IMG/VR virus record: IMGVR_UViG_3300032236_000552
Span: 35,865-99,864 of that record
Source of the DNA: a virus
Direction: 5' to 3' (one strand)
DNA length: 64,000 nt
Under the pieces are notes generated by a model. The model was given only the letters and a program-made list of their open reading frames with translations, was not told the origin of the DNA and did no database searches. A program made the translations under genes and the position numbers. Within the stretch, counting starts at the first letter, position 1, and every line of letters begins with the position of its first letter. Of this stretch, positions 28,941 to 43,190 are shown one piece after another.

Positions 28941-29540
28941 CTAGTGCTTTGCCTTTGTCTTTGCTTTTGCTACGGCTTTTGCTTTGGCTTTCACCTTTGC
29001 TTTGGCTTTTGCTACGGCTTTGGTCTGATATGGGTACTTCTCCAACCACATCTTAACGACGCTATTGCGAGTACCTTTCCATGCTGACCAGTCTTTGCCA
29101 TGGTCACTCATTTGATAAGCGACATTGGCATTGACTACAGGGTTTAGCAGTTGAGCGTTATATTCTAAACCGTAAGTTGCTCTACGGCTCGGTCCCATTG
29201 AACCAAGCATGTTAATTTGGAATAGACCGAACGAGTTATCGCCAGTCCGTAGGTTTCCATTGTAGTGTAATGGCTGTCCGTTTGATTCTTTCTTAGCAAT
29301 CGCCCACGCATACTTCAGGGCTTGACCCTGAAATCCTACTGCCTGAAGGATAGAGACCAACTGAGTATCCGAGAGGGTACTCGCATTGGAATACTGAACC
29401 GTTACGGCTTGTAGTGCGTCTGCTCTGCTAGGGGCTACGGCTGGGCTTGCCAGTCCTATAGCCACTGCTATCGCCATACTGGACATTGAGATAGTTCCCA
29501 CTGCCAGTCTTACTTTTGTTACTCTCCTAGTTATTTTCAT
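28941..29540 (-). CDS. Secreted lysozyme-like / SLT transglycosylase
   Basis: Signal-like N-terminus; AIAKKES (catalytic Glu), GLFQIN, NANVA, WSAW; AK-rich tail; SD GGAG before ATG 29540. Confidence 0.85.
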   Translation of the reverse strand: MKITRRVTKVRLAVGTISMSSMAIAVAIGLASPAVAPSRADALQAVTVQYSNASTLSDTQLVSILQAVGFQGQALKYAWAIAKKESNGQPLHYNGNLRTGDNSFGLFQINMLGSMGPSRRATYGLEYNAQLLNPVVNANVAYQMSDHGKDWSAWKGTRNSVVKMWLEKYPYQTKAVAKAKAKVKAKAKAVAKAKTKAKH

Positions 29541-29544
29541 AGCA

Positions 29545-30870
29545 TCACTCCAAATAGTCATTAACAACCTCGGCTGCCTTTGACTGCTGGTGACGGATAC
29601 GGTGCAGATAACGCTCCGTCGTTGTTATCGACTGGTGACCTAGACGCTCTTTTACCTCATGGACATCAACGCCTTTTGTTAGAAGGAGAGTGGCGTTGGC
29701 GTGCCGTAAGTCGTGCGTTGTTGGATACCAGCCAATACTTGACTGGGTTATGGCTTCGTTCCAAATGGCTCGCCATTTATCACGAGGTAGATAGTCTTCG
29801 CTTTTGCTAAGGCTTTGGCTTCTGCTATTGCTTCTGCTACGGCTTTGGCTTTTGCTAAGGCTTTCTACTTTGCCTTTCGCTTTGTCCTTTCTATAGTGAC
29901 TGCGGTAATCCTTTACCGCTTGCTTGCATTGGTCACACCTACAACCTCCTACGTTGTACGAGTAGGGTGTTGCGTGTTGGAATGTTCTGCTTCCAACGGT
30001 GTAACTTCCTTTGCTTTTGCTAGGACTTACTATTTTACTTGGCTTCTCTACAACTTGCTTCGAGAAGACCAAATCTTCTTTTGATAGGGCTTTTGCTGAG
30101 ACAAACGCCTGGATTTCGGCTATCAACGAAGAACTTAGTGTAACAGTCCTCTTATGACCGTTCTTTGTGCGTGGCTCTACCGCAAATCTTCGCAGGTCGG
30201 AACTATATTTTTTGCCTACATCTGAGACTGTTCTTCTTATATACACTTCTTTTGAGGTAAAGTTAAAGTCTTTAACACGCAACTCTGTTGCTTCTCCAAA
30301 CCGACAACCAGAACCCATCAGAAATCTGGCAAATAACTTTGCGCCGTCTGTGGGTAACTTCTTTACGATAGCCTGAAAGTCTTTAGCGTCTAGCGTGTAG
30401 GTTGGGTCGGGTCTTACTATCTGAACTTTGATACGGTGGGTTGGGTTGGTTGGGATTACCTCATCATCAACGGCTAACCTGAATAGGTATCCTAGAGCCG
30501 TTTTGAGGTGGGAGATTGTGCTAGGGCTTATGCCCTGCTTCTGTAAGTCCTCTAGCAACTTACGTATATCTTGCTTCTTGATTGCGGTCATCTTCTTGCC
30601 TTCTAAAGTGGGCTGGGCATACTTCTTTAGAAGGGTGGTGTAAGTCTTTTTAGTGATAGCCCGTAGGTCTCGTCTCTCCAGCAATTTGTCCATATAAGTA
30701 TCGAACGTCTCTTGGTATTCGGGCAGGGTCTCAAACTCTCCTGCTTCGGCTAGGAGTCCTGCATTTAGGGCTTTGGCTTTGGTGGGGTAAGTTCCCACGC
30801 TTTTTGTCTTGCCCTCTGAATTGCGGTAATAGCCTGTATAACGCTTGTTACGTTCGACTACATACGCCAT
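29545..30870 (-). CDS. int: Tyrosine recombinase/integrase with inserted Zn-binding and Ser-repeat segment
   Basis: GCRFGEA (R), TKNG (K), HDLRH, LGH, TTERY catalytic residues; probable start MAYVVERN at 30870. Confidence 0.92.
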   Translation of the reverse strand: MAYVVERNKRYTGYYRNSEGKTKSVGTYPTKAKALNAGLLAEAGEFETLPEYQETFDTYMDKLLERRDLRAITKKTYTTLLKKYAQPTLEGKKMTAIKKQDIRKLLEDLQKQGISPSTISHLKTALGYLFRLAVDDEVIPTNPTHRIKVQIVRPDPTYTLDAKDFQAIVKKLPTDGAKLFARFLMGSGCRFGEATELRVKDFNFTSKEVYIRRTVSDVGKKYSSDLRRFAVEPRTKNGHKRTVTLSSSLIAEIQAFVSAKALSKEDLVFSKQVVEKPSKIVSPSKSKGSYTVGSRTFQHATPYSYNVGGCRCDQCKQAVKDYRSHYRKDKAKGKVESLSKSQSRSRSNSRSQSLSKSEDYLPRDKWRAIWNEAITQSSIGWYPTTHDLRHANATLLLTKGVDVHEVKERLGHQSITTTERYLHRIRHQQSKAAEVVNDYLE

Positions 30871-30894
30871 GACTTGCCCCCTTTGTGTGGCGTG

Positions 30895-30908
30895 GGTCAC
30901 GTGTGACC
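30895..30908. promoter_or_regulatory. Palindrome upstream of integrase
   Basis: GGTCAC-GT-GTGACC. Confidence 0.35.
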
Positions 30909-30954
30909 TACATCACAGAGCCTATCAAATTAGCGGTGGATTGCAAAATAGAAC

Positions 30955-30993
30955 AAAAAAGGGGGCAGACTGCCGATTGGCAATCTACCCCCC
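30955..30993 (-). terminator. Intrinsic terminator insulating integrase from the early operon
   Basis: Minus strand G-run-TAGATTGCC-AATC-GGCAGTCTG-C-run followed by TTTTTT. Confidence 0.8.
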
Positions 30994-31021
30994 TGAGTGC
31001 TAACTACTCGTCTAAAGACGT

Positions 31022-31216
31022 TTAGCGAACTTCTTTTACCTGTGGCTTAGTTCTTTGCGCCTGACTTGTTAAGTGCCACTTGTTACATATCGGACACTTG
31101 TAGGAAGCGCAAGGAAGTTTCCTTCCGTCTAACCAATGAGACTTCCAAATAATCGAAAGGACTCGTTCGGCTTTTGCTCTAGTAGGAAATGCTTTCTTAT
31201 CAACACACTTAGCCAT
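31022..31216 (-). CDS. Small zinc-binding protein
   Basis: C..KKAF...YKCPICNKWHLTS. Confidence 0.7.
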   Translation of the reverse strand: MAKCVDKKAFPTRAKAERVLSIIWKSHWLDGRKLPCASYKCPICNKWHLTSQAQRTKPQVKEVR

Positions 31217-31336
31217 GCAAGCACCGTTCCTTGCAGTCAGCGCAGAACCACATCACATAAAGACCTTTAGTGGTCGTTACGGCGTGACCGTCCTCAAACG
31301 CCTTCTCTTGCCCGCAGGTGTCGCATAGTTCTAAAG

Positions 31337-31516
31337 TTACATATCCCATAGTGCCTCATCTTGTTGTGCTTCTAGTTCGGTATCTACTGCCTTATCTAAG
31401 GCTTCGGTGCAGATACAACACTCTGAGCAGGTTAAGCAAAACTCGCAGACTTCATTATTATCCCACGAGTCACACTCATCACAATACTTCTTATCGGTAT
31501 CGCCCTCAGACTCCAT
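31337..31516 (-). CDS. Cys-rich 59-aa protein ending QQDEALWDM
   Basis: Read by hand; TAATG coupling with SD GGAGG; 8 Cys. Confidence 0.65.
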   Translation of the reverse strand: MESEGDTDKKYCDECDSWDNNEVCEFCLTCSECCICTEALDKAVDTELEAQQDEALWDM

Positions 31517-31776
31517 TACTCCTCCTCGCCATTTGCTCCGAGAGGCTTACGATATTCGATACCCCTATGCAGGATAATCGTCTTAAAGGTGGCACTTACA
31601 TAGTTACCGTTATCATCAACATCTCTTGGGTTGTTAATCTGTTCCGCAATAGTGTCCAAAAGAATATCCATATTTCTTTTGCTCAATACTCGGTCAGTAT
31701 TAAACTCAAACTCAATCTTGTAATTACGGCGTGCCTTAAACTTAGACTTCTCAATACGAATAACTGCTTTTTCCAT
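31516..31776 (-). CDS. Hypothetical protein
   Basis: SD GGAGG, coupled. Confidence 0.65.
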   Translation of the reverse strand: MEKAVIRIEKSKFKARRNYKIEFEFNTDRVLSKRNMDILLDTIAEQINNPRDVDDNGNYVSATFKTIILHRGIEYRKPLGANGEEE

Positions 31777-31965
31777 TTAGTCCTCCTTAGTCTCTGAGAC
31801 TACCTTTAGTTGGTAATCACTCTTGTTCATATCCATATTCCCAATGACTTGATTAGTCTTATCGAACACGACCTCGTAGAAACTTCGCAGGTCGGATACG
31901 TCTTTAGTGTCGAAAGTAATCGGCACTTGTGTTGTTAGTTCTACCATATAAGTATTTATTGCCAT
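31777..31965 (-). CDS. Hypothetical protein
   Basis: SD GGAGG. Confidence 0.6.
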   Translation of the reverse strand: MAINTYMVELTTQVPITFDTKDVSDLRSFYEVVFDKTNQVIGNMDMNKSDYQLKVVSETKED

Positions 31966-31969
31966 TTGT

Positions 31970-32281
31970 TTATGCCTCCCATAGTTCTTGGTCTTTTTCT
32001 ATATCTACTACTACTTCTGACTCCTCTAAGTATTCATTTAGACACTCTAAGATTTGGTCTCCAACATCAGGACTGTCGTACACTCCGTTAGTTGTGGACT
32101 CCCATGCTTCATCAAAGAGGTTATTTAGTTTCTCATCAGTCAGGGAGTAGTTCTCCTGCATATCTCCTAACGTGTCCTCTACCCAACTCATAGCGAGTTT
32201 TCTATCCCACCAAAGAACCAAAATACTTTCTTTAGGGTCGTACTTAGAAAGTTCTTTTATGATTTGTTCTACTGTTGCCAT
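31970..32281 (-). CDS. Acidic protein, paralog of 32285..32596
   Basis: MATVEQIIKELSKYDP...DQELWEA. Confidence 0.7.
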   Translation of the reverse strand: MATVEQIIKELSKYDPKESILVLWWDRKLAMSWVEDTLGDMQENYSLTDEKLNNLFDEAWESTTNGVYDSPDVGDQILECLNEYLEESEVVVDIEKDQELWEA

Positions 32282-32284
32282 TTG

Positions 32285-32596
32285 TTATCCCTCCCATAGT
32301 TCTTGGTCACTTGCCGCTTTTTCTCTTTCTACAACATGACGAGTGCATACATCTTGGATAATGTCTGAAACACTTTCGTTAAACTTCTCCCAAACATACT
32401 CGTCGTTCCATACCAGCCTAAAGATAGTGTTAAAGATTTCATCTGAGAAGTCTTTATCAACATCAAAGCCGTTTACGTCTTGCTCTAAGATTTCTGTTGC
32501 TAAGTCTGCCTTCACGTACCACATATCAAAGATAGGTTCGTTAGGGTCTAACTTCTGTAACTGTTCTATAACTTCTTTTACTGTTGATACTGCCAT
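32285..32596 (-). CDS. Acidic protein, paralog of 31970..32281
   Basis: MAVSTVKEVIEQLQKLDP...DQELWEG. Confidence 0.7.
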   Translation of the reverse strand: MAVSTVKEVIEQLQKLDPNEPIFDMWYVKADLATEILEQDVNGFDVDKDFSDEIFNTIFRLVWNDEYVWEKFNESVSDIIQDVCTRHVVEREKAASDQELWEG

Positions 32597-32599
32597 TTG

Positions 32600-32842
32600 T
32601 TATCCCTCCCATAATGCTAGGTCTTGTTCTTCTTCTTCTAACAACGCAATAATCGTGCGTTCACAATCAGAGCGAGTTCTGTAATCGTTGCTATCTGTCC
32701 TTTCGTATTTATCTTTAGTAGAGGTCTGCACTAGCCACCACCAATCGCTATCGGGATTTCGTGAGATAACGAACCGATTATCTAAAGTTGCATACGAGCC
32801 TGTGTGTAACTTCTTTAACTTTAACTTATACATCTTAGACAC
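32600..32842 (-). CDS. Hypothetical protein ending EQDLALWEG
   Basis: SD GGAGG. Confidence 0.65.
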   Translation of the reverse strand: MSKMYKLKLKKLHTGSYATLDNRFVISRNPDSDWWWLVQTSTKDKYERTDSNDYRTRSDCERTIIALLEEEEQDLALWEG

Positions 32843-33440
32843 TTGTTTCCTCCGTATCCCATAGCCCTGCTTCTTGTTCGTCTTGTTCTAACTGGCACTC
32901 ACTACATATAGAAGGAGTATTTTCTTTATAGCAAGGCAACCACTCACTACAACTCATGCAACTGTGGTGTTCTGACTCCTCGCCCCAATACTTGTCGTAG
33001 ATTTCACACGTCCACTCGTCACCTTCCTCCTCTAAGAAGTCCTGACCATTTGCATACGTGTAAGTTCCGTAGAACGCACCACCTTCGTCATAGTATTTGT
33101 AAGTCATTTTGACTTTTGGATTGTCTTTAGACAACTGCAAAAGAACATAGTGAACTGGTGACCATGCAGTCCAAAAGTTAATATGCACCGAACCCTGTTC
33201 CCAATCATCAGTTATATATGGGTCGCACATATCCCACTTAGTACCCCAGTTGTTTATTGACCAGTTGTACCAATTTCTTTCCTCATCAACTGGCATAGGA
33301 ATAATCTTGTGAAAAGAAAATGGACTAGCAGGGTGAGCCTCTGTTGCTTCACTCTCTGTAATCTGAACCTGCTTCATCAGTTTATTTAACTGCTTAGGCT
33401 TTCCAGTTATATAGAGAGTGCTTACACAATGATTTGGCAT
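32835..33440 (-). CDS. YubB/DUF1281-like ferredoxin-fold protein
   Basis: MPNHC, WYNWSINNWGTKWD, FWTAWSP, YYDEG motifs. Confidence 0.75.
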   Translation of the reverse strand: MPNHCVSTLYITGKPKQLNKLMKQVQITESEATEAHPASPFSFHKIIPMPVDEERNWYNWSINNWGTKWDMCDPYITDDWEQGSVHINFWTAWSPVHYVLLQLSKDNPKVKMTYKYYDEGGAFYGTYTYANGQDFLEEEGDEWTCEIYDKYWGEESEHHSCMSCSEWLPCYKENTPSICSECQLEQDEQEAGLWDTEETSV

Positions 33441-33443
33441 TTG

Positions 33444-34052
33444 TTATTCCTCCTTTAGTTTTCTGTTAGTTAATTGACGGTACGCACCCGATTTGCCGTC
33501 AGTCTGACGGTATCCATATCGGACTAGGCGTGAGTTAATTGCGGCTGGTGTAATGCCTAAAGAACTTGCAACACGATAAGTAGTGACTCCACTATCTACG
33601 AGTTGCTTAACGAGTGCCATAAACTCCTCGGCTTCCTCACGATACTTAGGACTACTGCTACGGACTTGTCGTGCCTTGTCGTGTAGTTCTTGTAGTCGTG
33701 TAAGGACATCAGGGTCAATGGCAACTCTCTTTATCTGTTGCTTATAGACTTCTACATGAGGAATTGGTGGGATAGGTAAGTGCTTTATCACCAACTGCAC
33801 CCCAGTCTCGTTGTTGCTATCAAACTTGGCATAAAGACGAATAGCCTCTCGTGTTAGTCCTAGTTCATTAGCGATAGATTGCAAAGTCCAACCAGCCTCA
33901 GACAACTTAGTTGCATAGGCTCTACGTTCTTTTAATGGCAGACTTCTTAAGATTTCCCCAACTTCTTTAGGGAGAACATGGTGCTTGTGTACGGTCTTGT
34001 TACCAACAAACACACTTTCTTTTTCTTTTGTATGTCTAAATGGATAAGTCAT
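33444..34052 (-). CDS. Double helix-turn-helix DNA-binding protein
   Basis: GWTLQSIANELGLTREAIR and GVTTYRVASSLGITPAAINSRL. Confidence 0.8.
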   Translation of the reverse strand: MTYPFRHTKEKESVFVGNKTVHKHHVLPKEVGEILRSLPLKERRAYATKLSEAGWTLQSIANELGLTREAIRLYAKFDSNNETGVQLVIKHLPIPPIPHVEVYKQQIKRVAIDPDVLTRLQELHDKARQVRSSSPKYREEAEEFMALVKQLVDSGVTTYRVASSLGITPAAINSRLVRYGYRQTDGKSGAYRQLTNRKLKEE

Positions 34053-34068
34053 GGGTTTATGCTCCTTG

Positions 34069-34557
34069 TTATTTCGCAGGTCGGATTAGCGATACACCGT
34101 TGTTGGTGATAGCCGTTAGTTCTTGTTGCAACTTAACTACTTGCTCTGCAAACGATTTGCGTGCGTAGTCATGGTATGAGTCAGGGATTTGCGCTAAGAC
34201 TTCTTTATCTATTTGGTGAAACCACTCATCACGAAAACGCAAGCCACCGTCTTTACGATAGCCTCGCACCTTTAAGTTGTTAAGTACGAAGGACTCTTTA
34301 TCCTCGTAATTGAGTTGGTAATCTAATCGTTCTAGTCTTACCTTCTTTTTAGTACCAGTCTTTTGCCAACCATTAGTTGCAGAGTTCCAGTTGTAATCCC
34401 ACTCATCTATCTCAATGATTATCTGCTCTGTCTCTGATAGTTCTACATAACAACTCATGCTGATACCGCTACTACTCTCAACACTTGTGTCTGTGCTTGG
34501 TGCAGTTATTACTTTCATATCATGTCCTCCTTGTTTCGGTACTACGTATAGGGTCAT
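34069..34557 (-). CDS. Hypothetical protein
   Basis: Coupled start; 13-mer overlaps its last codons. Confidence 0.6.
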   Translation of the reverse strand: MTLYVVPKQGGHDMKVITAPSTDTSVESSSGISMSCYVELSETEQIIIEIDEWDYNWNSATNGWQKTGTKKKVRLERLDYQLNYEDKESFVLNNLKVRGYRKDGGLRFRDEWFHQIDKEVLAQIPDSYHDYARKSFAEQVVKLQQELTAITNNGVSLIRPAK

Positions 34558-34991
34558 TAGTTCTCCCATAGTTCTTGTTCTTGTTCTAGTTCTATTGCGT
34601 AGTCTCTATCCATAATCTCTAGTAAGTGGTCGTAGGCTTCTATGGGGTTGTGGTGGACACAATCCTCAAACTCCTCCTCATAAATACTTCGACACTCATA
34701 CCAGTTGTTCATGTCTATAACTAACTTGTCTTGTTCTACGAGTTCATACAACTTTTGGTCGGTGTTAATTCCTGTTCTTTCTAAGTCCTCAATAGTTACT
34801 AACTTATCGTCCAAAAGAAGTCTGACTTCTCCATAGACTCCAACATAACCGCACTCATTAGTTGGAGTCTTTACTGTGATTACTGGGTTGTGACCGCCAT
34901 GCCAAAGACTGTCTGCTTTATCAGGGTCAGTTAGGTCGTGAATAACATCAGCAGACCAGCCTTCGGGTGCTTCATATACAACTGGCTTCAT
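34557..34991 (-). CDS. Acidic protein ending EQEQELWEN
   Basis: TGATG-coupled start at 34991. Confidence 0.65.
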   Translation of the reverse strand: MKPVVYEAPEGWSADVIHDLTDPDKADSLWHGGHNPVITVKTPTNECGYVGVYGEVRLLLDDKLVTIEDLERTGINTDQKLYELVEQDKLVIDMNNWYECRSIYEEEFEDCVHHNPIEAYDHLLEIMDRDYAIELEQEQELWEN

Positions 34992-35704
34992 CAGTAACCG
35001 TATTTCTTGGCGCATATCGCACCCATACCACCAGCGATTGACTTGGCTTTTGTAAGTGTGCGACCACAATGGCAACAACGACCAGTCTGTGCTGAGTATT
35101 TAATTGCGTCTCTTAGTGTGAGTCGGTGTGCAGGAGTAATAAGTGGCAAGATATTTTTCTTGCTATCGTCTCTAACATACTTCTTTTGCTCATCAGAGTA
35201 CGACCACACCTGCCACTTCTTGCTCTCTACTCCTAACCTAATCGAGTAGATAACTCCTTCATATAGATACGCCCCCACTTCTGTAATCTGCATAGTGGGT
35301 TCTTTAGTTGCTTTAGTACGCAACGTGTTTATGAGTTCTGATACTTCTTTACGAGTGAAGTATTTTAATTCACGCACCTTGTTCTTTTGCAAGACATAAA
35401 GGTAAGCCTCTAACCCACCTTCTTTTGTATCCACGAGACTCTGTGCATACGCAACTTGCTTATCAGTTGCGTACTCAACGTAGTCAGGCTTAGTAGGACA
35501 CGACAATAGTGAAGTGATTAAGTCACCAGCACCTTGCACATTTAACTTCGTTAGTTCCTCGTCAGTTAATTTGCAAGCGTGTTGCTTTTCATTTAGTAAC
35601 TTCTTTATGAAGTTTATTTGCTTCTCACTTGCATAACGCACTTGGTACTCACCGTACTGATTGCCACCTCGTGAGCCACCTGCCTTGTGAAGTGTTGTGG
35701 TCAT
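34991..35704 (-). CDS. Protein with two A[ST]xKQ repeats and a DUF6011-like C-terminal zinc motif
   Basis: ASEKQI / ATDKQV repeats; CCHCGRTLT...SI..GMGAICA. Confidence 0.7.
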   Translation of the reverse strand: MTTTLHKAGGSRGGNQYGEYQVRYASEKQINFIKKLLNEKQHACKLTDEELTKLNVQGAGDLITSLLSCPTKPDYVEYATDKQVAYAQSLVDTKEGGLEAYLYVLQKNKVRELKYFTRKEVSELINTLRTKATKEPTMQITEVGAYLYEGVIYSIRLGVESKKWQVWSYSDEQKKYVRDDSKKNILPLITPAHRLTLRDAIKYSAQTGRCCHCGRTLTKAKSIAGGMGAICAKKYGY

Positions 35705-35870
35705 AGTGTTTTCCCTTCCAGTTGTTGATTGGCAGAGTTCTTTATATGCGCCTGTACGTCACTCACACCATGAGCGACTGCATAGAACCCTCCAGCATTT
35801 AGTCGTGCCTTCTCCTGCCCCAGCACTCTGAGCAGGAGAGATACTTGCTCCTCTGATAGTTCGATATTCA

Positions 35871-36452
35871 TTACAACACCGCCTTTCCTTCATAAGCGAG
35901 TTCCAGCAAACGCTCAAACTCTTTAATGCCGACTGTTACAACGCCCTTGTAAGACTCCTCGTAACCTGTTGTATCAACACTCACCTCTGCATTACCCACG
36001 AGTTCCGAGAGACTTGTAAGGATAGAAGTCTTAGAACGTGCGACTTCCTCCTGCACTCGTGCTTGTAGTTCACGTACCTTTCTACGCTTCTCCTCCTCAA
36101 TGCGCCTTGCTTCTTGCTCCGCTTGATTACGGTTAGCCCATAGTGGCTCTAGTGTTGCCCACTCAATGAGAATATCTGCTAGTCGTGCAGTCCAGTAGAA
36201 GTCATTACCGTTCTTATCTTTAGCAGTTACAAGAACGCCAACTGAACGGTGACCTTCTGGTGCTTTCTTAAACTGTGTACGGTCTTGTGTGCGACTGTTA
36301 GGGTCATACTCAAACTTAGTTAGTTCCAACACCGTTGCTTTTAGAACGTCAGACTCTCGTACTGTATTAACGTCACGACTGTTCTTACTGTTGTATTCCC
36401 ATGCAGGAAAGATTGCGTACTCTGTACCAACTTGTAGTTCGGATAGTTTCAT
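35871..36452 (-). CDS. Hypothetical protein with coiled coil
   Basis: SD AAGGAG; 193 aa. Confidence 0.7.
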   Translation of the reverse strand: MKLSELQVGTEYAIFPAWEYNSKNSRDVNTVRESDVLKATVLELTKFEYDPNSRTQDRTQFKKAPEGHRSVGVLVTAKDKNGNDFYWTARLADILIEWATLEPLWANRNQAEQEARRIEEEKRRKVRELQARVQEEVARSKTSILTSLSELVGNAEVSVDTTGYEESYKGVVTVGIKEFERLLELAYEGKAVL

Positions 36453-36498
36453 TTAGATATGCTCCTTATAGATTTTCGCAGGTCGGATTTTTTGTAAT

Positions 36499-36525
36499 GA
36501 GTGGCGAGCAGATAACTCGCCACTC
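36499..36525. repeat. Hairpin GAGTGGCGAG/CTCGCCACTC (copy 1)
   Basis: Perfect 10-bp inverted repeat next to a 13-mer. Confidence 0.8.
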
Positions 36526-36538
36526 TCTTGTAACTTCT

Positions 36539-38539
36539 TTAAGCATTAACCAAACGGCGTGAGATAGCAATACGCACTAGGTCTTTACCGAGTGTGAGAA
36601 TATCTCGTGCAGTTTTGATATTAGTCATTAACTCAAACTCGTGGCGATAACGATTAAGAACATCATCATTTAAGTCTGAGTCATAGAGAAGTGCTTGGCA
36701 GGTAAGGACACCAGCGTTACGCATTTCTGTAACTGCTTGCTCTCCTTCTTTTGTATCCCATGCACCGTCAGTAATCATAAAGAGGATTTTGATTGGCTTC
36801 TTGCTCTCAGCCAAAACTCTCTTAGCAAACAAAAGAGACTCACATGGATTTGTTCCACCGCTTGCTCCTCCGTCACGAATAGTTGTACCTGCTCGTTCAT
36901 CAGCACCATAAAGAAGTGTTGTGCCGTAATCGAATAGTGCAACTGTTGTACGTGCTTGCACACGCTCTAGTGCAGACTTAATAGCCCACATGGATTGGTA
37001 AGCATGATTGGCTGAGTCACCACTCATACTGCCCGACTTATCAAGGAGGATAACTGCCTCAATATCGCAAACATCATCTATGCCCTCAGTCCATGAGTCA
37101 AAGATTGTGTCGAAGTCTGCTCCTTGTATATAACGCTGAACGTTCACCTTTCCAGTATCGGTAGCACGCAACCATGCTGGGTCATAATCAGAACGCAAAC
37201 GCTCTAGTTCACGACCAAACGATTTAGCAACACCGATTAACTCAGGAGGAGTTGCAACGTCTTTGTAGTTAGCACGTTCAGGAGTCTTAGCGTTACCGCC
37301 GTCAAGGTCGCTAGAGATACCTAACTGTTTTGCAATTCGATTAACTTCTTTAGAAAGTTCTTTTGCAACATCATTAAATATATCTTGCAACGTATCTGTG
37401 ACTTGTTGATTGTCTCCTGTTGTTCCAATGCTTGTACCAATGCCCTTGCCACCTTCTTGTGGTGAAGGACTGTCGTACTCGCTATCGCTTTCAGTATCAG
37501 AGTCACCGTCACCGTCAGAGTCACCGTCACCGCTACCGTCAAAAGGCTTACCGCCATTACCGTTAGCAGTATTGGTATCGTCTTTAGCAGTATCGCTATC
37601 GCCGTTACCTTCATCATCAGACTCATCAGCAGGAGTATCAAGAACAACATCAAGAACAACATCACCCTTCTTAGGAGAACGTTGCTTGTCTTTTTCTTGT
37701 TCTGATTTTTTCGCAGGTCGGACGTTGCTTGACTCGTATCCGTCTGTTGGTCGGTGGTCGTGTCCATGAGGATTATGCACTCGCACCCAAACGTCACGTC
37801 CACCTTCTCCTTCACCTTCACCGTTGCCAGTATTAACTGGTGGAAGGTTCTTTAGAAGTTCTGCATACTCTGTAATGAGTTGGTATGCAGTCTCGGTCAC
37901 TTCATCATTACCAGTAAGAATTAAATCGTTGTATTGGTCAATGATTTCAGCGAACGCATGAATATCTTGTGGGTTCTTAAACTTATCTACCGACAACTGG
38001 CGCAACTCAACTGGTAGATAAGTGCGACCATAGATAAGTGGGAAAGAAGTTGCTACTGCTTCCTCGTTCTGAATTAGATAGTCAGCGATTGTTGCAGTAA
38101 GCCAACCTTCCAATGGTGGGAGATAGCCAACGAGTAAGTTCTCGATACGCATATCCTCTAAAGAATTAAAGGCTTGCCATAACTCACGAGAGTTATCAGA
38201 CTCTTTAATCTTGATAACAAGATTGCTTCCGTTTCTTGGCGTATAACGCAAATGAGCGTACTCATGGAAGCAGAGACCTTGCAACGACAAAATTGACTTA
38301 GCAGTGAAGTCATATTTAATTTCTGCAAGATTAAAACTTACTGACGAAGTGCTTGACCATGCAGGGGCAGGATACTCAGGACGATTAACGATATTGACTT
38401 TAATCTTGCGACCAGTCAAAACGCTAAGTGTCTTAGTGAATATCTCACCAAAAGACTGTAAGTGATTTTGCTTTTTGATTTGTAATTCTTTTTCTTTATC
38501 TGTCTGTTCTACTGCAAACTTCGGCATTACGGTAGTCAT
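36539..38539 (-). CDS. VWA-domain protein (CobT-like) with HExxH motif and acidic linker
   Basis: HEYAH; D/G/S-rich linker; MIDAS DKSGSM, GGTNP, ITDG. Confidence 0.88.
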   Translation of the reverse strand: MTTVMPKFAVEQTDKEKELQIKKQNHLQSFGEIFTKTLSVLTGRKIKVNIVNRPEYPAPAWSSTSSVSFNLAEIKYDFTAKSILSLQGLCFHEYAHLRYTPRNGSNLVIKIKESDNSRELWQAFNSLEDMRIENLLVGYLPPLEGWLTATIADYLIQNEEAVATSFPLIYGRTYLPVELRQLSVDKFKNPQDIHAFAEIIDQYNDLILTGNDEVTETAYQLITEYAELLKNLPPVNTGNGEGEGEGGRDVWVRVHNPHGHDHRPTDGYESSNVRPAKKSEQEKDKQRSPKKGDVVLDVVLDTPADESDDEGNGDSDTAKDDTNTANGNGGKPFDGSGDGDSDGDGDSDTESDSEYDSPSPQEGGKGIGTSIGTTGDNQQVTDTLQDIFNDVAKELSKEVNRIAKQLGISSDLDGGNAKTPERANYKDVATPPELIGVAKSFGRELERLRSDYDPAWLRATDTGKVNVQRYIQGADFDTIFDSWTEGIDDVCDIEAVILLDKSGSMSGDSANHAYQSMWAIKSALERVQARTTVALFDYGTTLLYGADERAGTTIRDGGASGGTNPCESLLFAKRVLAESKKPIKILFMITDGAWDTKEGEQAVTEMRNAGVLTCQALLYDSDLNDDVLNRYRHEFELMTNIKTARDILTLGKDLVRIAISRRLVNA

Positions 38540-38579
38540 TTATTTGTTGCCTCTCTATTTATTTCGCAGGTTGGATAAT

Positions 38580-38605
38580 GAGTGGCGAGCATTTACTCGC
38601 CACTC
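38580..38605. repeat. Hairpin GAGTGGCGAG/CTCGCCACTC (copy 2)
   Basis: Same stem as 36499; next to the 13-mer variant. Confidence 0.8.
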
Positions 38606-38619
38606 TACTTGCAACGGTA

Positions 38620-39963
38620 TTACGCAACAACTTCGCTTTCGAGATGAGAACGGTGTGCTTCCAAAAGAAGTTTCACACTTGCCTTCTCATCATCTCGGAA
38701 GTTGTTAAGGAAGTTATCAACTGCATAGTTGTAACTAATATCTCTAGCAAACTTCTCAAAGTTCTTTAGAAGTCTTGTAGAGATTGGTGTCTCATAAACA
38801 CCAGCGATTGCTTCCTCACGCATTTGTTGTGCGAGGCGTAGCAAGGTCGGTGACTTAATAAACTGCTTCTCAATTTCGATGTCGTACTCGAAAGTCCACT
38901 TGTGTTGGAAGCGGTCAGCGAACGCTTGATTAAACTCTTGCGTTCCACGATAACCTCGTGAAGCAGGATTGTAAGAACCGATAAGCAAGACATTTTCTCC
39001 TGCTTCGATTACTTCGCCCTTGTGGTCTAGCAATATCAACTGACGGCGTGAGTCCAACGTTGGGTGAATTGCAGAGGAAAACTTAGAGGGCATACAAGAC
39101 AACTCATCTAAGTTAATAACTGCATTTCCATTACGCCAGCACTCTGTAAAACCACCGTCTTGCCAAACAAGATTGCCTTGCTCGCTAGGAATAACCTTGC
39201 CGAACAACTGTCCTGTATCTATGCCAACGTTAAAGTTCACCGAGTAATAACGCAAACCTCTTTTGCTTGCATAGACCATGCCACTTGTTGTCTTACCAGT
39301 ACCAGCGTCTCCTGCAATAAGGATATTGTGACCGTTCTTCATGGCGTAGTCGTACAACTCTGTTTCAGTTTCACCACTTGCAAACGTGCGTTCGACATAA
39401 CCTGAGATTTCAGGATTGCTTGCAGAAGGTACGAACGACAATGAGTTTTCATCAAAGTTGTGTTCGATTGCTTGCAACGGTTCACGAACAACCTTAATGA
39501 CTGGTGCTGGTGCAACTGTTGTCTGTGCTTTCGTTGCAGACTTATCTGAACGTCCGTCAGAACGATAAGCAGACAATAGGTTGGGGTCTTGTTGTATCAA
39601 AGTATCAACCTCTTTCAGTAAGTCTCCAACTGTTTTGTTAGAGACTGATTGGTGACGTAAGCGATATTGCTTCGTCAATTTCTGAATTAGAACAACTGGG
39701 TATGAATTGTTAGCGAGTGCAGACTGGTCTGCTTCTGTAAGTGGTGTTGATAGAACCTCACCGACAATAAGGTCGGTGTAAGTATCAGCGTTAGAAATAA
39801 TTGTTTCGTAATCAAGCGCATTAGTCCAAGCGTTGCTTTCGCCTCGCCCTCCATTTGTAATGCGAGTAAGTGCGTACTGCTTACCGTTATGGCTTGCGAG
39901 TAATAGTTGTTGCAAAGTATCTGCTTGTGAAGTCTTACCTGTAATGAGAATTGCATACGACAT
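38620..39963 (-). CDS. MoxR/CbbQ-type AAA+ ATPase
   Basis: GDAGTGKT, WQDG, NLDEL, YNP...YRGT..FNQAFADRF, ISTRLL. Confidence 0.9.
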   Translation of the reverse strand: MSYAILITGKTSQADTLQQLLLASHNGKQYALTRITNGGRGESNAWTNALDYETIISNADTYTDLIVGEVLSTPLTEADQSALANNSYPVVLIQKLTKQYRLRHQSVSNKTVGDLLKEVDTLIQQDPNLLSAYRSDGRSDKSATKAQTTVAPAPVIKVVREPLQAIEHNFDENSLSFVPSASNPEISGYVERTFASGETETELYDYAMKNGHNILIAGDAGTGKTTSGMVYASKRGLRYYSVNFNVGIDTGQLFGKVIPSEQGNLVWQDGGFTECWRNGNAVINLDELSCMPSKFSSAIHPTLDSRRQLILLDHKGEVIEAGENVLLIGSYNPASRGYRGTQEFNQAFADRFQHKWTFEYDIEIEKQFIKSPTLLRLAQQMREEAIAGVYETPISTRLLKNFEKFARDISYNYAVDNFLNNFRDDEKASVKLLLEAHRSHLESEVVA

Positions 39964-40232
39964 TTATTGCTCCGTTTTCTTGTTAGTTGTTAGAGTGAGA
40001 ATTGGTGATAGAGACTTGCAACTTCTTTTAACTTTTTTTCTGCTTGCTTGTTCACGTCACGTAACGCTTTACGCAACTGTTTTTCTGTAACCATTTGCAG
40101 TAATGCAAGGTGCATGGTGTAGAACAACTGCTCATCATCTAAAGAAGGATTAAGAAAGTTGATTGCTTCTTTTAGTTGTTGTTCCAGTTGTAGTTTTTCT
40201 ATGAGTACGTTTTTCGCAGGTCGGATTTTTTT

Positions 40233-40547
40233 TCACACCCATAACCCTTCTCGTAGTTGGTGTGCAAACGTTACGAACGTGTAATCGTCTTTTGTATTTA
40301 GTAATCCTTTTACTATCGGTGTCTTACATGACTGACGTTCTTTTAAGTTGGCGTGTAACTTCTTTACAAACAAACGCAACAACTTAATTTCGTTTTGATA
40401 TGAGTCAATATCAAACACGTCAATAACAAAGAACAACCCTGCTACTTCTGAAAAGTCAATGCCACGAATACACGCAGTATTTTTTGGCACGACAATTTTA
40501 TTTCGTAATAGTTCTTGCGCTTCTGCTGGTGTGATTTCACAAGACAC
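40233..40547 (-). CDS. Hypothetical protein
   Basis: SD GGAGG; in early operon. Confidence 0.55.
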   Translation of the reverse strand: MSCEITPAEAQELLRNKIVVPKNTACIRGIDFSEVAGLFFVIDVFDIDSYQNEIKLLRLFVKKLHANLKERQSCKTPIVKGLLNTKDDYTFVTFAHQLREGLWV

Positions 40548-40740
40548 TTAGTAGTTCCTCCCTAACTTCTTTAGTCCAGTTGTTCTTTTGAGTTGTGCGA
40601 CCATGACTGTCGTTCCTATGCCACTTACTAAAGTGACGTGTGCCTTCTGAATAGAACCAGTAATCAAAACGTGCGCCACGTTCAGGTAAGTCTGACGGCT
40701 TCACGTAATCAAACGGCTTGTGTGCAAACGTGTGCGACAT
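40537..40740 (-). CDS. Hypothetical protein
   Basis: 67 aa ORF in operon. Confidence 0.55.
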   Translation of the reverse strand: MSHTFAHKPFDYVKPSDLPERGARFDYWFYSEGTRHFSKWHRNDSHGRTTQKNNWTKEVREELLSVL

Positions 40741-40877
40741 TAGTTAGTTACCTTTCGTAGAAGTGATACCAACGACATGAAGGACTCTCCTTCATCATCT
40801 ATAAGAAGTGTTACGCCTTGCTCATCAACTGTTGCGATAGTCATTTATTTATTTCTCCTTTTTCTTGTATCGGTTTA

Positions 40878-41087
40878 TTAGTGAGGATAAAGAAGGTCAA
40901 TGCAGTATTGCGATAGTTGTTCGATTGGCTTGTGCTTGCATACTTCGGGAGTTGTTATATCAAACAACTTATATATAACGTAGATTGCAACACCAGCGAT
41001 TAGTAATGCACGCAAACGCTTTCCACGTTTTGTTAATCGCCACGTTGTAGTTGTAGAAGTTCGCAGGTCGGATTTTTTGTTAGGCAT
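40878..41087 (-). CDS. Small single-pass membrane protein
   Basis: RLTKRGKRL followed by a hydrophobic helix. Confidence 0.65.
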   Translation of the reverse strand: MPNKKSDLRTSTTTTWRLTKRGKRLRALLIAGVAIYVIYKLFDITTPEVCKHKPIEQLSQYCIDLLYPH

Positions 41088-41307
41088 TATTTTCTACTCC
41101 TGTCTTAACACTAAACGGTGCTAACTGAATTGTTTTGTTAGTTAAATAAGTATCAAACAATTCAGTTGCAAGCATTTCTACGTAGTGTGTATTTAACTTG
41201 TCGGAGATTGCAGACCAGTCTGTCTTTTCATTATGAAGTGCAAAGTAGATAGCAACAATGTCTTTTGTTTCGAGAACGAGTGAACCAGTTGTTGAGTCAA
41301 TTACCAT
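41080..41307 (-). CDS. Hypothetical protein
   Basis: SD AAGGAG. Confidence 0.6.
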   Translation of the reverse strand: MVIDSTTGSLVLETKDIVAIYFALHNEKTDWSAISDKLNTHYVEMLATELFDTYLTNKTIQLAPFSVKTGVENNA

Positions 41308-41365
41308 TTGTATTTTTCTCCTTAGTGATTAGTTGATTGGTAGTTGTTATTACGTTGTTGTGCAA

Positions 41366-41725
41366 CTAGAAGTTAATCTGTCCGTAGATTGCTTGTTGTA
41401 AAACAAGATATGCAAAGCAACCGTCATAATCCTCATGGTCGAGTCGGTGACCGTAACAATGAGTCTGATTGTTCTTTAGCAAAGTTGCGTAAGCGTTTAG
41501 TAGTTGTTCGATATTAAGAACGCAAGGTAACTCCTTGTAATAACCGTTCTCATCTAAGTTATCAACGTCTAAGTATTGCAACGTAATAATTTGTGTGTCC
41601 TCGTTGTAATCCAAAGTACGTGGTACAACAAAGTCGGTGCAACCATAGAAGTCAGAACCAGTAATTGCGTCAAAGAACTCGGTGTTGTTGATTTCTTTTG
41701 TGATTGTGATTGTTGTTGTAGCCAT
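41366..41725 (-). CDS. Hypothetical protein
   Basis: SD AAGGAGCAACAAATAAATG. Confidence 0.7.
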   Translation of the reverse strand: MATTTITITKEINNTEFFDAITGSDFYGCTDFVVPRTLDYNEDTQIITLQYLDVDNLDENGYYKELPCVLNIEQLLNAYATLLKNNQTHCYGHRLDHEDYDGCFAYLVLQQAIYGQINF

Positions 41726-41789
41726 TTATTTGTTGCTCCTTTTTTATTAGTTGTTGTTGGTATTTGTTAGTAAGTTTTTTTGCAACTGA

Positions 41790-42260
41790 TTAAAGAGAAG
41801 CAAGTTGTGATTGCAACTCGTTGATTTGGCGAGTGATTACTTCCTTCTCAAAGTTAGAGAAAAGAAGTTCGACATATTTGTTAATGATTGTAAGCACGTA
41901 ACTTTCACCAGCGATAACTGCAATATCGTGCGCCTCCTGCAAACGTGAAGCGGTGTGACGTTCTACGTTGATGTTGTTGATGTTGATATGAGATGAGCGA
42001 GTACCTAAAGACGTTTTGTATTCGTTGTACCACTCACTAAATCCGTCAGGAGTTCCAACGTGATTGCGATAACCAACACGAATAACACTTTCGTAAAGTT
42101 CCCAACCACGTTGTTTTGTTGTTTCGATAGAAACAATTAAACCGAGAACCGAATACGTATTCGCCAAACCACTCTTAGATGAATAAGCGATTGACGAATT
42201 GTTTTTGATTGTTGCAGTTGTTTCGTTAATCAAGTGAGTTGTTAGTGTGCGTGTATCCAT
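41790..42260 (-). CDS. First gene of the leftward operon, hypothetical
   Basis: SD AAGGAGCAACAACTAAATG. Confidence 0.7.
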   Translation of the reverse strand: MDTRTLTTHLINETTATIKNNSSIAYSSKSGLANTYSVLGLIVSIETTKQRGWELYESVIRVGYRNHVGTPDGFSEWYNEYKTSLGTRSSHININNINVERHTASRLQEAHDIAVIAGESYVLTIINKYVELLFSNFEKEVITRQINELQSQLASL

Positions 42261-42794
42261 TTAGTTGTTGCTCCTTTTTTATTAGTAGTTGTTATTTTGA
42301 TTACGTGCAAGTGATTAACAAGTAATCACCACCACTCACTCGTGTTGTTGTAAGTAACCGTTACAACGCAACGAGTGAGTGATAGAAACTAATTGTTATT
42401 TTTATTTCCAAACGTATTTAGTAGAAGCAAGCGCAACATATTTGATTTCGCATTAGACCAACATAAGTTTTTCTGCACGAGGCAAAGTCATTTAGCGTGT
42501 TGATTGCTTGTAAGAATTATTCTTACCGATATTCAGCAACTCTCAGAAGTTTTATTGTGAGGTTCGATAACTATTAAGTGCGAATTGTTTTTCGTAACGT
42601 GCAACACGATTGCACTCATAACAATTAACAAGTAATTAAGTTAGCGATTAGTTTTGCGAGTGATTTATTTTGCGTTGCGATTTCGATTACAAACCAAACA
42701 ACGAAAACAAAAAAAGTTTTTAGAAAACAAAAACGTTTTTGTTTTTAACTACTCGCCCTCAGTCCGATTTCTCGGAGGAGTTGCTGACCCCCCA

Positions 42795-42824
42795 AGTATA
42801 GGCGAAACGATTTGGGAAACGCAA
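42795..42824 (-). promoter_or_regulatory. SigA-like promoter for the leftward (early) arm
   Basis: Minus strand TTGCGT-18nt-TATACT. Confidence 0.6.
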
Positions 42825-43171
42825 CTCGGATAAAAGTGGCGTGTTATGCCTATTTCAGAGCAGGTATTAACACGAAAATTGCGAAGGAGGAGTATTACGG
42901 GCGGAGATGCTGAAGTCCGATGGTGATTACATATAAAGAAGTTTCGCAAAGTTATTTTGTGTTATTTATTTTCAGTAAAGATAAATAAACAAACAAAAGA
43001 AAAGTAATTAAGTAATAACAACACAACGTTGCTGTCGTGACTGATGACCACAGCAAAGTAATAACCAAAAAGATAATTAAACAAACGTATTTAGTAATGA
43101 TTAGTTGCAAAAGATAATGCGTTGTAATACATAACCAAAGTAATTGGCGCATGATTATTAGTTGGGGGTTA

Positions 43172-43190
43172 TAGGGGGCGAAGCCCCCTA
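43172..43190. other. GC hairpin containing the GCGAAGC mini-hairpin, inside an AT-rich non-coding region
   Basis: TAGGGGGC-GAA-GCCCCCTA. Confidence 0.7.

Follow-up and report, generated by a model that had tools for sequence, protein, structure and literature searches.

What does an asymmetric 13-mer do that recurs, always in one orientation, along the leftward arm of an uncultured ~100-kb phage? The word, TCCGACCTGCGAA, lies in the 64,000-nt stretch of DNA analysed here (the window), which corresponds to positions 35865-99864 of a genome of 99,864 bp. A preliminary description of the window had counted seven exact copies and one with a single mismatch, all in the leftward arm, and had proposed a stoperator-like set of binding sites for a phage regulator.

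Distribution in the window and genome

A scan of the window confirmed positions and strand: seven exact copies and one single-change variant, TCCAACCTGCGAA, are all on the minus strand within one 11-kb stretch (30189-41072; Table 1). Matches elsewhere in the window, of which none had been noticed before, are limited to a single one with two mismatches at 22735 (+). None of 100 dinucleotide shuffles gave the observed nine matches at ≤2 mismatches (shuffle mean 1.18); the preliminary description had put the chance expectation for a given 13-mer in 64 kb at about 0.002. The whole-genome scan added one copy only, TCCAACCTGCGAA at genome position 9415 (+), which is within a plus-strand gene and in sense orientation, so that the proposed polarity with transcription also holds here. 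There is no degenerate tail: the leftward arm has zero copies with two mismatches. The transcription unit that carries the word makes up 14% of the genome.

Table 1. Copies of the 13-mer and other features mentioned in the text (window coordinates).
Feature	Position	Strand	Context
Copy 1, TCCGACCTGCGAA	41060..41072	-	8 nt past stop of ORF 41080-41307; codons 6-9 of predicted ORF 40878-41087; first copy downstream of the three early promoters
Copy 2	40213..40225	-	Intergenic; 8 nt past stop of ORF 40233-40547; 250 nt upstream of AAA_5 ATPase start (39963)
Copy 3, variant TCCAACCTGCGAA	38563..38575	-	4 nt past hairpin; ends 23 nt before VWA start codon (38539)
Copy 4	37710..37722	-	Within VWA gene; V-R-P-A-K frame in conserved SSSxRPAxK stretch
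Copy 5	36475..36487	-	11 nt past hairpin; ends 22 nt before start of ORF 35871-36452
Copy 6	34073..34085	-	Over last codons of ORF 34069-34569; ends 20 nt before double-HTH gene start
Copy 7	31884..31896	-	Within 62-aa ORF 31777-31965
Copy 8	30189..30201	-	Within integrase gene, residue ~233, linker after conserved RTVSDVG
Leftward non-structural arm	28941..42260	-	Contains all eight copies
Three early promoter + RBS cassettes (TTGCAc-N17-TACyAA)	41333-41365, 41753-41785, 42278-42310	-	Repeated
Hairpin 5' of copy 3	38580..38605	-	Stem GAGTGGCGAG/CTCGCCACTC; no U-tract; z -3.6
Hairpin 5' of copy 5	36499..36525	-	10-bp stem identical to that of the copy-3 hairpin
Strong intrinsic terminator	30959..30994	-	16-bp stem + T-run, between ORF 31022-31216 and integrase
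Double-HTH protein, candidate reader	33444..34052	-	202 aa; HTH domains like sigma-70 region 4 and like ParB/KorB
HNH endonuclease	46893-47180		

The arm encodes small acidic proteins, an AAA_5 ATPase, a VWA protein, a DUF6011 protein, the double-HTH protein, an integrase, and an SLT lysozyme. The 13-mer is absent from all three early promoter cassettes (41333-42310). Copies 3, 5, and 6 end 20-23 nt ahead of an ATG, just 5' of a Shine-Dalgarno (SD) sequence; copies 1 and 2 are directly preceded by the stop codon of the upstream ORF; and the integrase copy is downstream of the intrinsic terminator. Five copies were originally counted within predicted ORFs. A non-overlapping gene set gives three, omitting ORF 40878-41087 and placing copy 34073, at the end of an ORF, among those upstream of a start. 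The reading frames differ as described: S-D-L-R in the integrase, ORF 31777-31965, and ORF 40878-41087; R-P-A-K in the VWA gene and ORF 34069-34569. The flanking A/T tracts reported earlier correspond to A-tracts beside five of the window copies.

Gaps between copies are 847-2402 bp, roughly one copy per 1.5 kb, matching the 0.85-2.4 kb given previously, and the sites are spaced more evenly than expected by chance. The coefficient of variation (CV) is 0.36 in the window (p=0.0085), and 0.13 (p=0.0006) and 0.09 (p=0.001) in the related loci L131 and L150; across the clade the interval is about 1.4-2.5 kb. Such spacing is easier to reconcile with a signal that a moving complex encounters than with gene-specific promoters.

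Versions of the word in related loci

For comparison, 33 loci of related uncultured ~100-kb myoviruses were available. The exact window word is absent from all 33, but the loci carry their own versions, of the form (T)CCG-N5-8-AAA (CCGCAACAAAA, CCGNRGGGACAAA, CCGAGGTGCAAA, TCGGGATAGAAA, and others), in the same arm and often at orthologous positions, 85 in sense and 6 in antisense orientation. A large clade of uncultured myoviruses keeps this cis-acting word, with the 13-mer as its local version; judging from sequence comparison, it is a real control signal, since the relatives hold their own versions at the same places. Such lineage-specific versions at orthologous positions appear to be new. 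A lack of conservation in related phages had been named as an argument against the signal; it fails because positions and form are conserved, although the exact word is not. In a complete relative (G004), all five copies are confined to the arm and the early promoters again have no site. Extra copies are found outside the arm in two others (G001 and G002), with four of the five pointing with the local genes.

Some of the orthologous positions are domain linkers in the AAA, VWA, and integrase genes, in which the codons, and in places the residues too, are altered to fit; by using such linkers of long genes, the sites keep their spacing even. At the integrase position of copy 8, the relatives have their own word and altered residues: where relatives read SEGKRF, the window reads SDLRRF and L149 SEVQRF, and a PAGTK insertion is present in L131. 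At copy 4, in the VWA gene, the same peptide is written in relatives with different codons. It is only in the clade with the word CCGAGGTGCAAA that the SRGAN peptide of the DUF6011 protein is encoded by AGCCGAGGTGCAAAT, and two loci (L135 and L147) have their own word at the position orthologous to copy 7. Selection acts on the nucleotides, as had been suggested from the differing reading frames, and it does so at the protein's expense. The hairpin at the copy-5 junction is also kept in relatives; its stem sequence differs, with pairing retained. Most lineages have a site just upstream of the conserved two-domain HTH gene.

Overall, ~43% of sites are outside ORFs, mostly just 5' of an SD, vs. 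roughly 7% non-coding sequence. Of 100 clade copies, 57 are deep inside genes, at conserved linkers up to 1.2 kb from the next start, and 32 precede a start codon by 16-67 nt, immediately 5' of the SD. Some relatives have a word that includes the SD or is followed after 4 nt by an in-frame ATG or GTG (L134, with the word CCGATAGGAGAAA, and the G clade at its AAA-gene and double-HTH-gene sites). Among 86 aligned instances, no position beyond the word is conserved except A at +1 and +2, and no -35, -10, or initiation element is found at a fixed distance; the 7 nt following the word are A/T-rich and G-poor.

Possible functions at the DNA and RNA levels

Our preferred explanation, offered tentatively, is that the word is a transcription-polar DNA site for a phage factor, stoperator-like in function but outside the cluster A system. 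A sequence-specific, asymmetrically binding phage factor would read the word on DNA and, once bound, act on RNA polymerase during transcription of the arm, making the word a polar control point for elongation or shut-off. Its use could be in lysogens, to keep the arm silent, or in lytic growth, to turn off early transcription. The reader would presumably be a protein, binding to DNA rather than RNA, and its effect a block rather than a start or read-through. The exactness and strand purity of the copies, their 85:6 sense bias across relatives, and their confinement to the arm argue for this explanation, as do the lineage-specific words at orthologous sites with protein sequence changed to fit. 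The site upstream of the two-domain HTH gene in most lineages suggests, by analogy, a precedent in cluster A. Against it are the three early promoters without a copy, the restriction to one arm, and the still putative lysogeny, since 185,579 species genomes yielded no prophage relatives of the VWA protein or of the integrase. The original proposal survives in part. Polar, phage-specific recognition remains the best reading, but membership among L5-type stoperators does not hold, since there is no early-promoter site, only one arm is involved, and no lysogens were found.

Elongation control by a sense-strand word has precedents in ops/RfaH and nut/N, where a word of ~12 nt in one long operon acts on the elongating polymerase; an operon has one or two such sites, close to its 5' end, and nut/N-type specificity is lineage-specific among lambdoid phages. 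The present word is likewise operon-specific, in sense orientation, and lineage-specific, but it has no boxB-like hairpin, and a NusG paralogue was not found.

The double-HTH protein had been put forward as a reader, and this is not borne out: changes in its recognition helices and in the word do not go together. CCGCAACAAAA is common to two clades whose helices differ, and clades with identical helices differ in word. The other proposed readers, the MerR-like protein and the integrase insert, gained no support. Its divergence is correlated with that of the word at Spearman r 0.26, within the 0.06-0.40 of other arm proteins, none of which shows a special correlation. This too counts against the preferred explanation. 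Searches of the genome detected no T7-type RNA polymerase, sigma r2, or NusG domain, and PHROG and Pfam scans of the large proteins gave no RNA polymerase or sigma factor. PF00940 and PF04542 had no genome match, although the PF00940 control matched nowhere, and divergent factors may remain.

These negative results, which with the missing fixed-distance -35/-10 elements favor a DNA-bound elongation factor, bear also on a second explanation, which we consider rather unlikely: a compact, phage-specific (middle) promoter, at which a phage factor together with a host or unrecognised phage polymerase would start transcription within a few bases downstream of each copy. Copies within genes would then act as internal promoters, of the kind known from T4 late and T7 transcription. 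Promoters private to a phage include the T7-class 23-mers, T4 late TATAAATA, and the sigma-dependent promoters of phiEco32 and SPO1. Like these, the word is short, nearly invariant, in sense orientation, and repeated along a transcription unit, sometimes within genes and often 20-40 nt before a start; the non-coding placement 5' of the SD, in three window copies and the 32 upstream clade copies, suits a promoter, as do the A/T-rich, G-poor 7 nt after the word. Its occurrence only downstream of host-type early promoters would fit an early-to-middle cascade, and the hairpins before some copies recall terminator-promoter punctuation. Unlike known examples, however, it has neither a detected cognate polymerase or sigma factor nor conserved flanking or initiation positions. 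The 57 copies deep in genes include conserved linker positions in the middle of genes of 1.3-2 kb, transcription starting within the integrase gene would serve no obvious purpose, and even spacing would not be expected.

The same placement 5' of the SD would suit an element acting in the mRNA: a single-stranded 5'-UTR site for an RNA-binding protein, nuclease, or ribosome, serving in translation control, processing, or antitermination and akin to the cluster K start-associated sequences (SAS/ESAS). Orientation is strictly sense, the word is predicted to be unpaired after a stable hairpin, hairpins retain pairing though their stems vary by lineage, some relatives' words contain an SD or lie 4 nt before a start, and those of L134 and L140 resemble the SAS. 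We nevertheless regard this as unlikely. The window word contains no SD and stands 20-23 nt from the ATG, with five of eight copies not associated with a start; no in-frame start follows the VWA or integrase copies; and ribosomes would sweep translated sites. An RNA specificity of 11-13 nt that changes by lineage has no candidate reader, and no antisense partner is present in the genome.

A DNA signal unrelated to transcription is quite improbable. Candidates are nicks (as in T5 and phiKMV-like phages), Chi- or KOPS-like translocation or recombination signals, priming sites, and arm-type sites for the recombinase. The strand specificity, even spacing, and tolerance of any reading frame would be consistent with these, and the genome encodes the HNH endonuclease and a tyrosine recombinase (the integrase) predicted to be catalytically intact, with its R, K, H, R, H, and Y invariant. 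The sites are, however, limited to one transcription unit rather than genome-wide, and copies outside the arm are oriented with the genes around them rather than all on one strand. Chi and KOPS are words of 5-8 nt, skewed genome-wide with replication or end entry; the KOPS/Chi alternative raised in the preliminary description is disfavored because the word is far longer, at 13 nt, and restricted to 14% of the genome. The integrase keeps a nearly invariant N-terminal domain across changes of the word, and recombination among eight direct copies would delete the arm.

Comparison with other dispersed one-way words

To our knowledge, dispersed one-way words have been characterized experimentally only in cluster A mycobacteriophages (stoperators); next to these and the similar cluster K SAS, the clade described here would be a third, independent example, with unusually clean signals: different words in the same positions, protein sacrificed to the word, and even ~2-kb spacing. 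Cluster A stoperators, for which L5 gp71, Bxb1 gp69, and the TipsytheTRex repressor served as comparators (PMC9283540, PMC6550527), are asymmetric 13-mers read by monomeric two-domain repressors (PMC9283540) and spread over the whole genome (PMC6550527). The similarities include several near-identical copies in one orientation relative to transcription, a motif that drifts gradually among relatives, and one site upstream of a ~200-aa protein with two DNA-binding domains. There are also clear differences. Cluster A has ~24-30 sites of 13-14 bp in both arms, with an operator at the early lytic promoter, against 5-8 here, in one arm and with none at an early promoter; here more than half of the sites are inside genes, spacing is even, and lysogeny is putative, whereas cluster A phages are temperate and their sites silence the prophage. 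Cluster A repressors of the gp71 type, which have an N-terminal HTH and a Stoperator domain, diverge together with their motif, and the double-HTH candidate does not. No solved cluster A repressor chain matched the double-HTH family profile at E≤1, and the candidate's VIA-align match to 7TZ1 (Z 4.6 over 44 residues) is a generic HTH match.

An evenly spaced set of "milestone" sites, belonging to a previously undescribed system for elongation control or early-arm shut-off in a widespread clade of these myoviruses, is a more specific and more doubtful version of the preferred explanation. A phage factor would read a lineage-specific 11-13-nt sense-strand word every ~2 kb, and the word would be retained inside genes through rewritten protein linkers. 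It would differ from cluster A stoperators in having no promoter operator, one arm, and possibly no lysogeny. The 2-kb periodicity is a concrete, testable mechanistic prediction, since a promoter does not need it. If a reader is found, it would provide a new portable, orientation-dependent transcription-control module, and reveal how an early block is timed or silenced in large uncultured phages that have no recognisable repressor-operator switch.

A milestone system could possibly also explain the cluster K SAS, which may be one local form of the same kind of signal. The SAS, without an established function since 2011 (Pope et al., 2011, PMC3203893), is likewise a 13-nt asymmetric, one-way word restricted to the non-structural arm (PMC3203893, PMC12699233), with an inverted repeat preceding a subset of copies. 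Its copies include the SD and are placed 3-7 nt ahead of the start codon, and only 6 of 125 motifs fall within ORFs (PMC12699233). By contrast, the window word contains no SD, precedes three genes by 20-23 nt with its other five copies placed elsewhere, and varies in sequence between lineages; it does not match the SAS consensus, GGGATAGGAGCCC, at ≤2 mismatches and is unrelated to it. The words of L134 and L140 (the latter TTCGGGATAGAAA) have GATAGGAG or GGGATAG in common with that consensus, a match of only 7-8 contiguous bases, and SAS-type placement, with the SD in the word or an ATG or GTG 4 nt beyond it, is found at the L134 and G-clade sites.

The word and its copies

The oriented 13-mer TCCGACCTGCGAA (the word) is found in seven exact copies along the leftward early arm, and with the variant TCCAACCTGCGAA there are eight copies in total, all on one strand (see table). 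These are the eight oriented copies of the preliminary description, reproduced in both position and strand; the count was reached by none of 100 dinucleotide shuffles. The same description had noticed no copies elsewhere in the window, and the whole genome adds just a single 1-mismatch copy at genome position 9415 (+), within a plus-strand gene. Taken alone, this copy could be of chance origin (~0.1 expected). No 2-mismatch copies were found in the arm, so there is no degenerate tail, and in an ungapped alignment of the copies conservation ends at the 13 bases, save for a preference for A on either side.

The copies range from just past the third early gene to the middle of the integrase gene. 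Three (34073, 36475, and 38563) end 20–23 nt before a start codon, 5–7 nt 5′ of the Shine-Dalgarno (SD) sequence; those at 40213 and 41060 immediately follow the stop codon of the upstream ORF; and three are deep within coding regions (those of VWA, ORF 31777–31965, and the integrase). The word has neither an antisense copy nor an antisense partner anywhere in the genome, and Rfam matches were limited to a tRNA-Gln and a palindrome; the idea of an RNA guide was therefore dropped. A 14-mer scan of public viral contigs for the same word gave single chance matches only.

Positions of features in the arm, and words of related loci (window coordinates unless a locus is named)
Feature	Position or lineage	Strand	Remarks
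Word, exact	30189, 31884, 34073, 36475, 37710, 40213, 41060	minus	TCCGACCTGCGAA
Word, variant	38563	minus	TCCAACCTGCGAA
VWA-flanking hairpins	36499-36525, 38580-38605	minus	identical 10-bp stems, loops differ
Promoter-RBS cassettes (three, near-identical)	41333-42310	minus	TTGCAc-N17-TACyAA then AAAAAAGGAGCAACAAATAAATG; head first three early genes, start of block
Strong intrinsic terminator	30994-30959	minus	divides main operon from integrase
AAA-gene word + ATG/GTG	L131:1109-1130, L156:9073-9095, L128:9071-9092, L132:6279-6300		in-frame in L131 and L156 (the two checked)
Word CCGCAACAAAA	two separate clades
Word CCG[CAG][AG]GGGACAAA	G clade
Words CCGAGGTGCAAA / CCGCTGTGCAAA	T clade
Word CCGCCACAAAAA	L142
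Word CCGCCTACAAAAAA	L145, L160
Word CCGCAACGAAAAA	L138
Word CCGAAGGAAAAAA	L128, L129
Word CCGATAGGAGAAA	L134
Word TTCGGGATAGAAA	L139, L140, L150

Words and their positions in related phages

A megablast search with the arm gave no match in GenBank phages. The nearest phages there are actinophages, at only 31–37% identity, and a single-protein scan for close relatives found none. A collection of 5.8 billion proteins includes at least 120 homologues of the VWA protein (46–58% identity), many on 94–101-kb contigs and about 12 of them from complete relatives of ~95–101 kb, and an alignment-based scan of IMG/VR yielded 33 loci, analyzed at lengths of up to 22 kb. Arm synteny is kept in those that were mapped. 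The window's word is in none of the 33, but every one has a repeated sense-strand word of its own (see table), with the shared form (T)CCG, a variable core, and an A-run; the window's CCG-AC-CTGCGAA is nearest to the T-clade CCG-AG-GTGCAAA. Over all the relatives' words, 85 are sense and 6 antisense. In the complete relative G004 all five copies are in the arm; G001 has four there and three outside, all three pointing with the local genes; and G002 has six there and two outside, one with the local genes and one ambiguous. Single G-clade genomes mix variants that differ in one or both of the variable bases 4–5, and a given orthologous site tends to retain a variant of its own. Change in the word is therefore by drift at individual sites, not by a simultaneous switch.

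The same nine placements recur in different lineages. Three are upstream of genes (VWA, DUF6011, and double-HTH), one follows the post-VWA hairpin, and five are within genes: around residue 145 of the AAA_5 ATPase (AAA), in the acidic linker of VWA, in the homologues of ORFs 31777 and 31022, and in the integrase after RTVSDVG. Conservation in relatives thus extends to position and to the (T)CCG/A-run form, but not to the exact word. At several of these sites the peptide or the codons change with the word. The integrase reads SDLRRF in the window, SEVQRF in L149, and SEGKRF in several relatives, with a PAGTK insertion at this site in L131; VWA V-R-P-A-K is encoded by GTC CGA CCT GCG AAA in the window and GTG CGA CCT GCA AAG in L134; and the conserved SRGAN of DUF6011 is spelled AGCCGAGGTGCAAAT solely in the clade using AGCCGAGGTGCAAAT as its word. 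These cases bear out the earlier proposal that selection acts on DNA or RNA rather than on protein. Flanks of orthologous sites average 56% identity, and conservation stops at the word edges; as pattern matching was used to locate the sites, this profile is circular in part.

Spacing is more even than expected for random placement between the end sites. Intervals in the window are 847–2402 bp (CV 0.36, p = 0.0085), and several independent lineages are tighter: L131 (CV 0.13, p = 0.0006), L156 (CV 0.16, p = 0.001), and L150 (CV 0.09, p = 0.001), with p = 0.02 for both L133 and L154. In the remaining lineages it was not significant, among them L141, where a degenerate copy may have been missed. 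The period of ~2 kb holds though the site sets vary by clade; an exception is a tandem pair in the G-clade integrase, 15 nt apart.

The copies at 38563 and 36475 are preceded by hairpins that share one stem (GAGTGGCGAG/CTCGCCACTC) and lack a U-tract. In relatives the two VWA-junction hairpins are unlike each other, and the identical stems in the window suggest that, in this genome, either gene conversion has acted locally or recognition is sequence-specific. A strong hairpin precedes 12 of 84 sites, vs. 32 of 760 control positions. Most of the sites with a hairpin fall at the two VWA junctions, where lineages differ in stem sequence but pairing is kept.

Two further features were seen in relatives. 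In the G clade, the word in the AAA gene is followed exactly 4 nt later by ATG or GTG, a sequence arrangement that suggests an internal start, which would produce the ATPase domain minus the N-terminal domain. A second leader element (an A-run, ATCCGC(A/T)A, and an A/C-rich tract) lies 15–25 nt before the start codons of AAA, VWA, and DUF6011 homologues in L142, L140, L150, L145, and L136, at times in tandem and at times adjoining the main word; possibly, there are genomes with two related words.

Possible functions and readers

Any model has to account for a self-contained asymmetric word, in sense orientation only, in one transcription unit and on none of the early promoters, enriched 5′ of SD sequences, retained in the linkers of long genes, evenly spaced, and drifting between lineages. 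We tentatively favor, at somewhat below even probability, a polar site that is bound on the DNA and controls polymerase during elongation, because this covers the polarity, the even spacing, and the sites in linkers, as well as the absence of promoter features. The stoperator-like system of the preliminary description accordingly survives as a likeness in type of function, but not as membership in the stoperator system of cluster A mycobacteriophages, for which three tests failed. Signals at the DNA level with no relation to transcription are improbable.

A compact promoter, which seems somewhat unlikely, would fit the 5′-proximal copies and their location after the early genes, but leaves the deep intragenic sites and the spacing unexplained and has no recognized polymerase or sigma factor: a domain search of the genome detected neither sigma region 2 nor NusG, nor a T7-type RNA polymerase, this last a weak result, as its control gave no match anywhere. 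Among 86 non-identical instances no base is conserved at a constant distance on either side of the word, the flank signal being only A at +1/+2 and a G-poor stretch to +7. Read as a sigma-70 −35 (TCCGAC/CCGACC), the word has a plausible −10 at 15–17 nt in only two or three of the eight copies, and the −10 is likewise missing from the 86-site profile. Readings as sigma-54, sigma-28 (GCCGATAA), boxA, or DnaA-box sites, judged by eye on the copy sequences, do not fit and were dropped.

An element acting in the RNA as part of the 5′-UTR is unlikely. Placement near the SD is in its favor: 43 of 100 sites are outside ORFs, vs. ~7% non-coding sequence, with enrichment just 5′ of the SD, and some relatives' words include the SD or stand 4 nt before the start. 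The L134 and L140 words also resemble the Start-Associated Sequence (SAS) of cluster K mycobacteriophages (PMC3203893), whose function is still not established (PMC12699233). The translated sites weaken this reading. A link to 16S rRNA was dropped: matches of 8–9 nt to its conserved segments are no more than chance expects. A dispersed one-way phage word is a known kind of feature; new here are its occurrence in a large uncultured clade, in lineage-specific versions at orthologous positions, and the ~2-kb periodicity and restriction to one arm, without a promoter operator or recognizable repressor.

The 202-aa double-HTH protein had been put forward as one of three candidate readers of the word. 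It is kept in most loci of sufficient reach, usually with a word site just upstream of its gene, although BLAST found no homologue in L145. In its predicted structure (mean pLDDT 84) there are two HTH domains, similar to region 4 of sigma-70 and to the DNA-binding domain of ParB/KorB; fold searches gave generic HTH matches only (ParB/KorB, DnaA domain IV, sigma region 4; Z ≤ 6.1). The recognition helices do not track the word. One word, CCGCAACAAAA, goes with SRQAIEQY in one of its two clades and with TREMIRLI in the other; L139/L140 and L150 have a common word but different helices; and TRE[AS]IRLY is found throughout the G and T clades as well as in L134 and the window, though their words differ. 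Word distance correlates with double-HTH distance no better than with that of other arm proteins (r 0.26; range 0.06–0.40). These results do not support the protein as the determinant of specificity, although it could recognize the invariant portions, CCG and the A-run.

An SPbeta-type repressor with integrase fold is also disfavored: in the tyrosine integrase (29545–30900, minus strand) all catalytic residues are invariant, and the N-terminal domain is constant while the word varies. Profiles of VWA and integrase found no relatives and no prophages in 185,579 species genomes, so lysogeny is unproven. The integrase also has a Cys-rich insert (CRC..C) and, after it, a low-complexity tract, A/K-rich in the window and of S-x repeats in relatives; the adjacent SLT lysozyme ends in a similar A/K repeat (repeat families D1/D6).

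The arm and its genome

The window covers bases 35865–99864 of a 99,864-bp IMG/VR virus record, whose 48-bp terminal repeat is indicative of a circularly closed assembly. The genome is that of a myovirus (tail sheath, baseplate, large terminase), with further genes for PolA, a DnaB-like helicase, ribonucleotide reductase, and a DpdA-like protein. Plus-strand genes make up almost the entire set. The leftward block (28941–43483) departs from this, with small acidic proteins, the AAA_5 (MoxR/CobS-like) ATPase, the VWA (CobT-like) protein, the DUF6011 (34991–35704) and double-HTH (33444–34052) proteins, a Zn-ribbon protein (31022–31216), the integrase, and the lysozyme; its early proteins are encoded at 40233–42260. 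Between the divergent arms is an AT-rich stretch of ~1.4 kb (42300–43700) without credible genes, including a 67-nt near-perfect palindrome (42324–42390); it could be an origin or control region.

The most over-represented 9–10-mer of the whole genome is CTAAAGAAG(TT), with 16 plus-strand and 6 minus-strand copies (four of the six in the minus arm). It tracks the coding strand in both arms, which probably reflects codon or amino-acid bias (LKK/AKEV); in many relatives, however, it also overlaps the stop codon of VWA. Other top k-mers are accounted for by collagen-like and Gly-rich repeats.

Seven arm proteins (minus strand, 31337–35078) share an acidic C-terminal tail ending in LWE or LWD, their ORFs ending at 31337, 31970, 32285, 32600, 32835, 34557, and, less closely, 40233. 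Some of the tails belong to DNA repeat families D2/D4, and the tail is found again in relatives (TTATCCCATAG repeats). These proteins may have a common host target or docking peptide.
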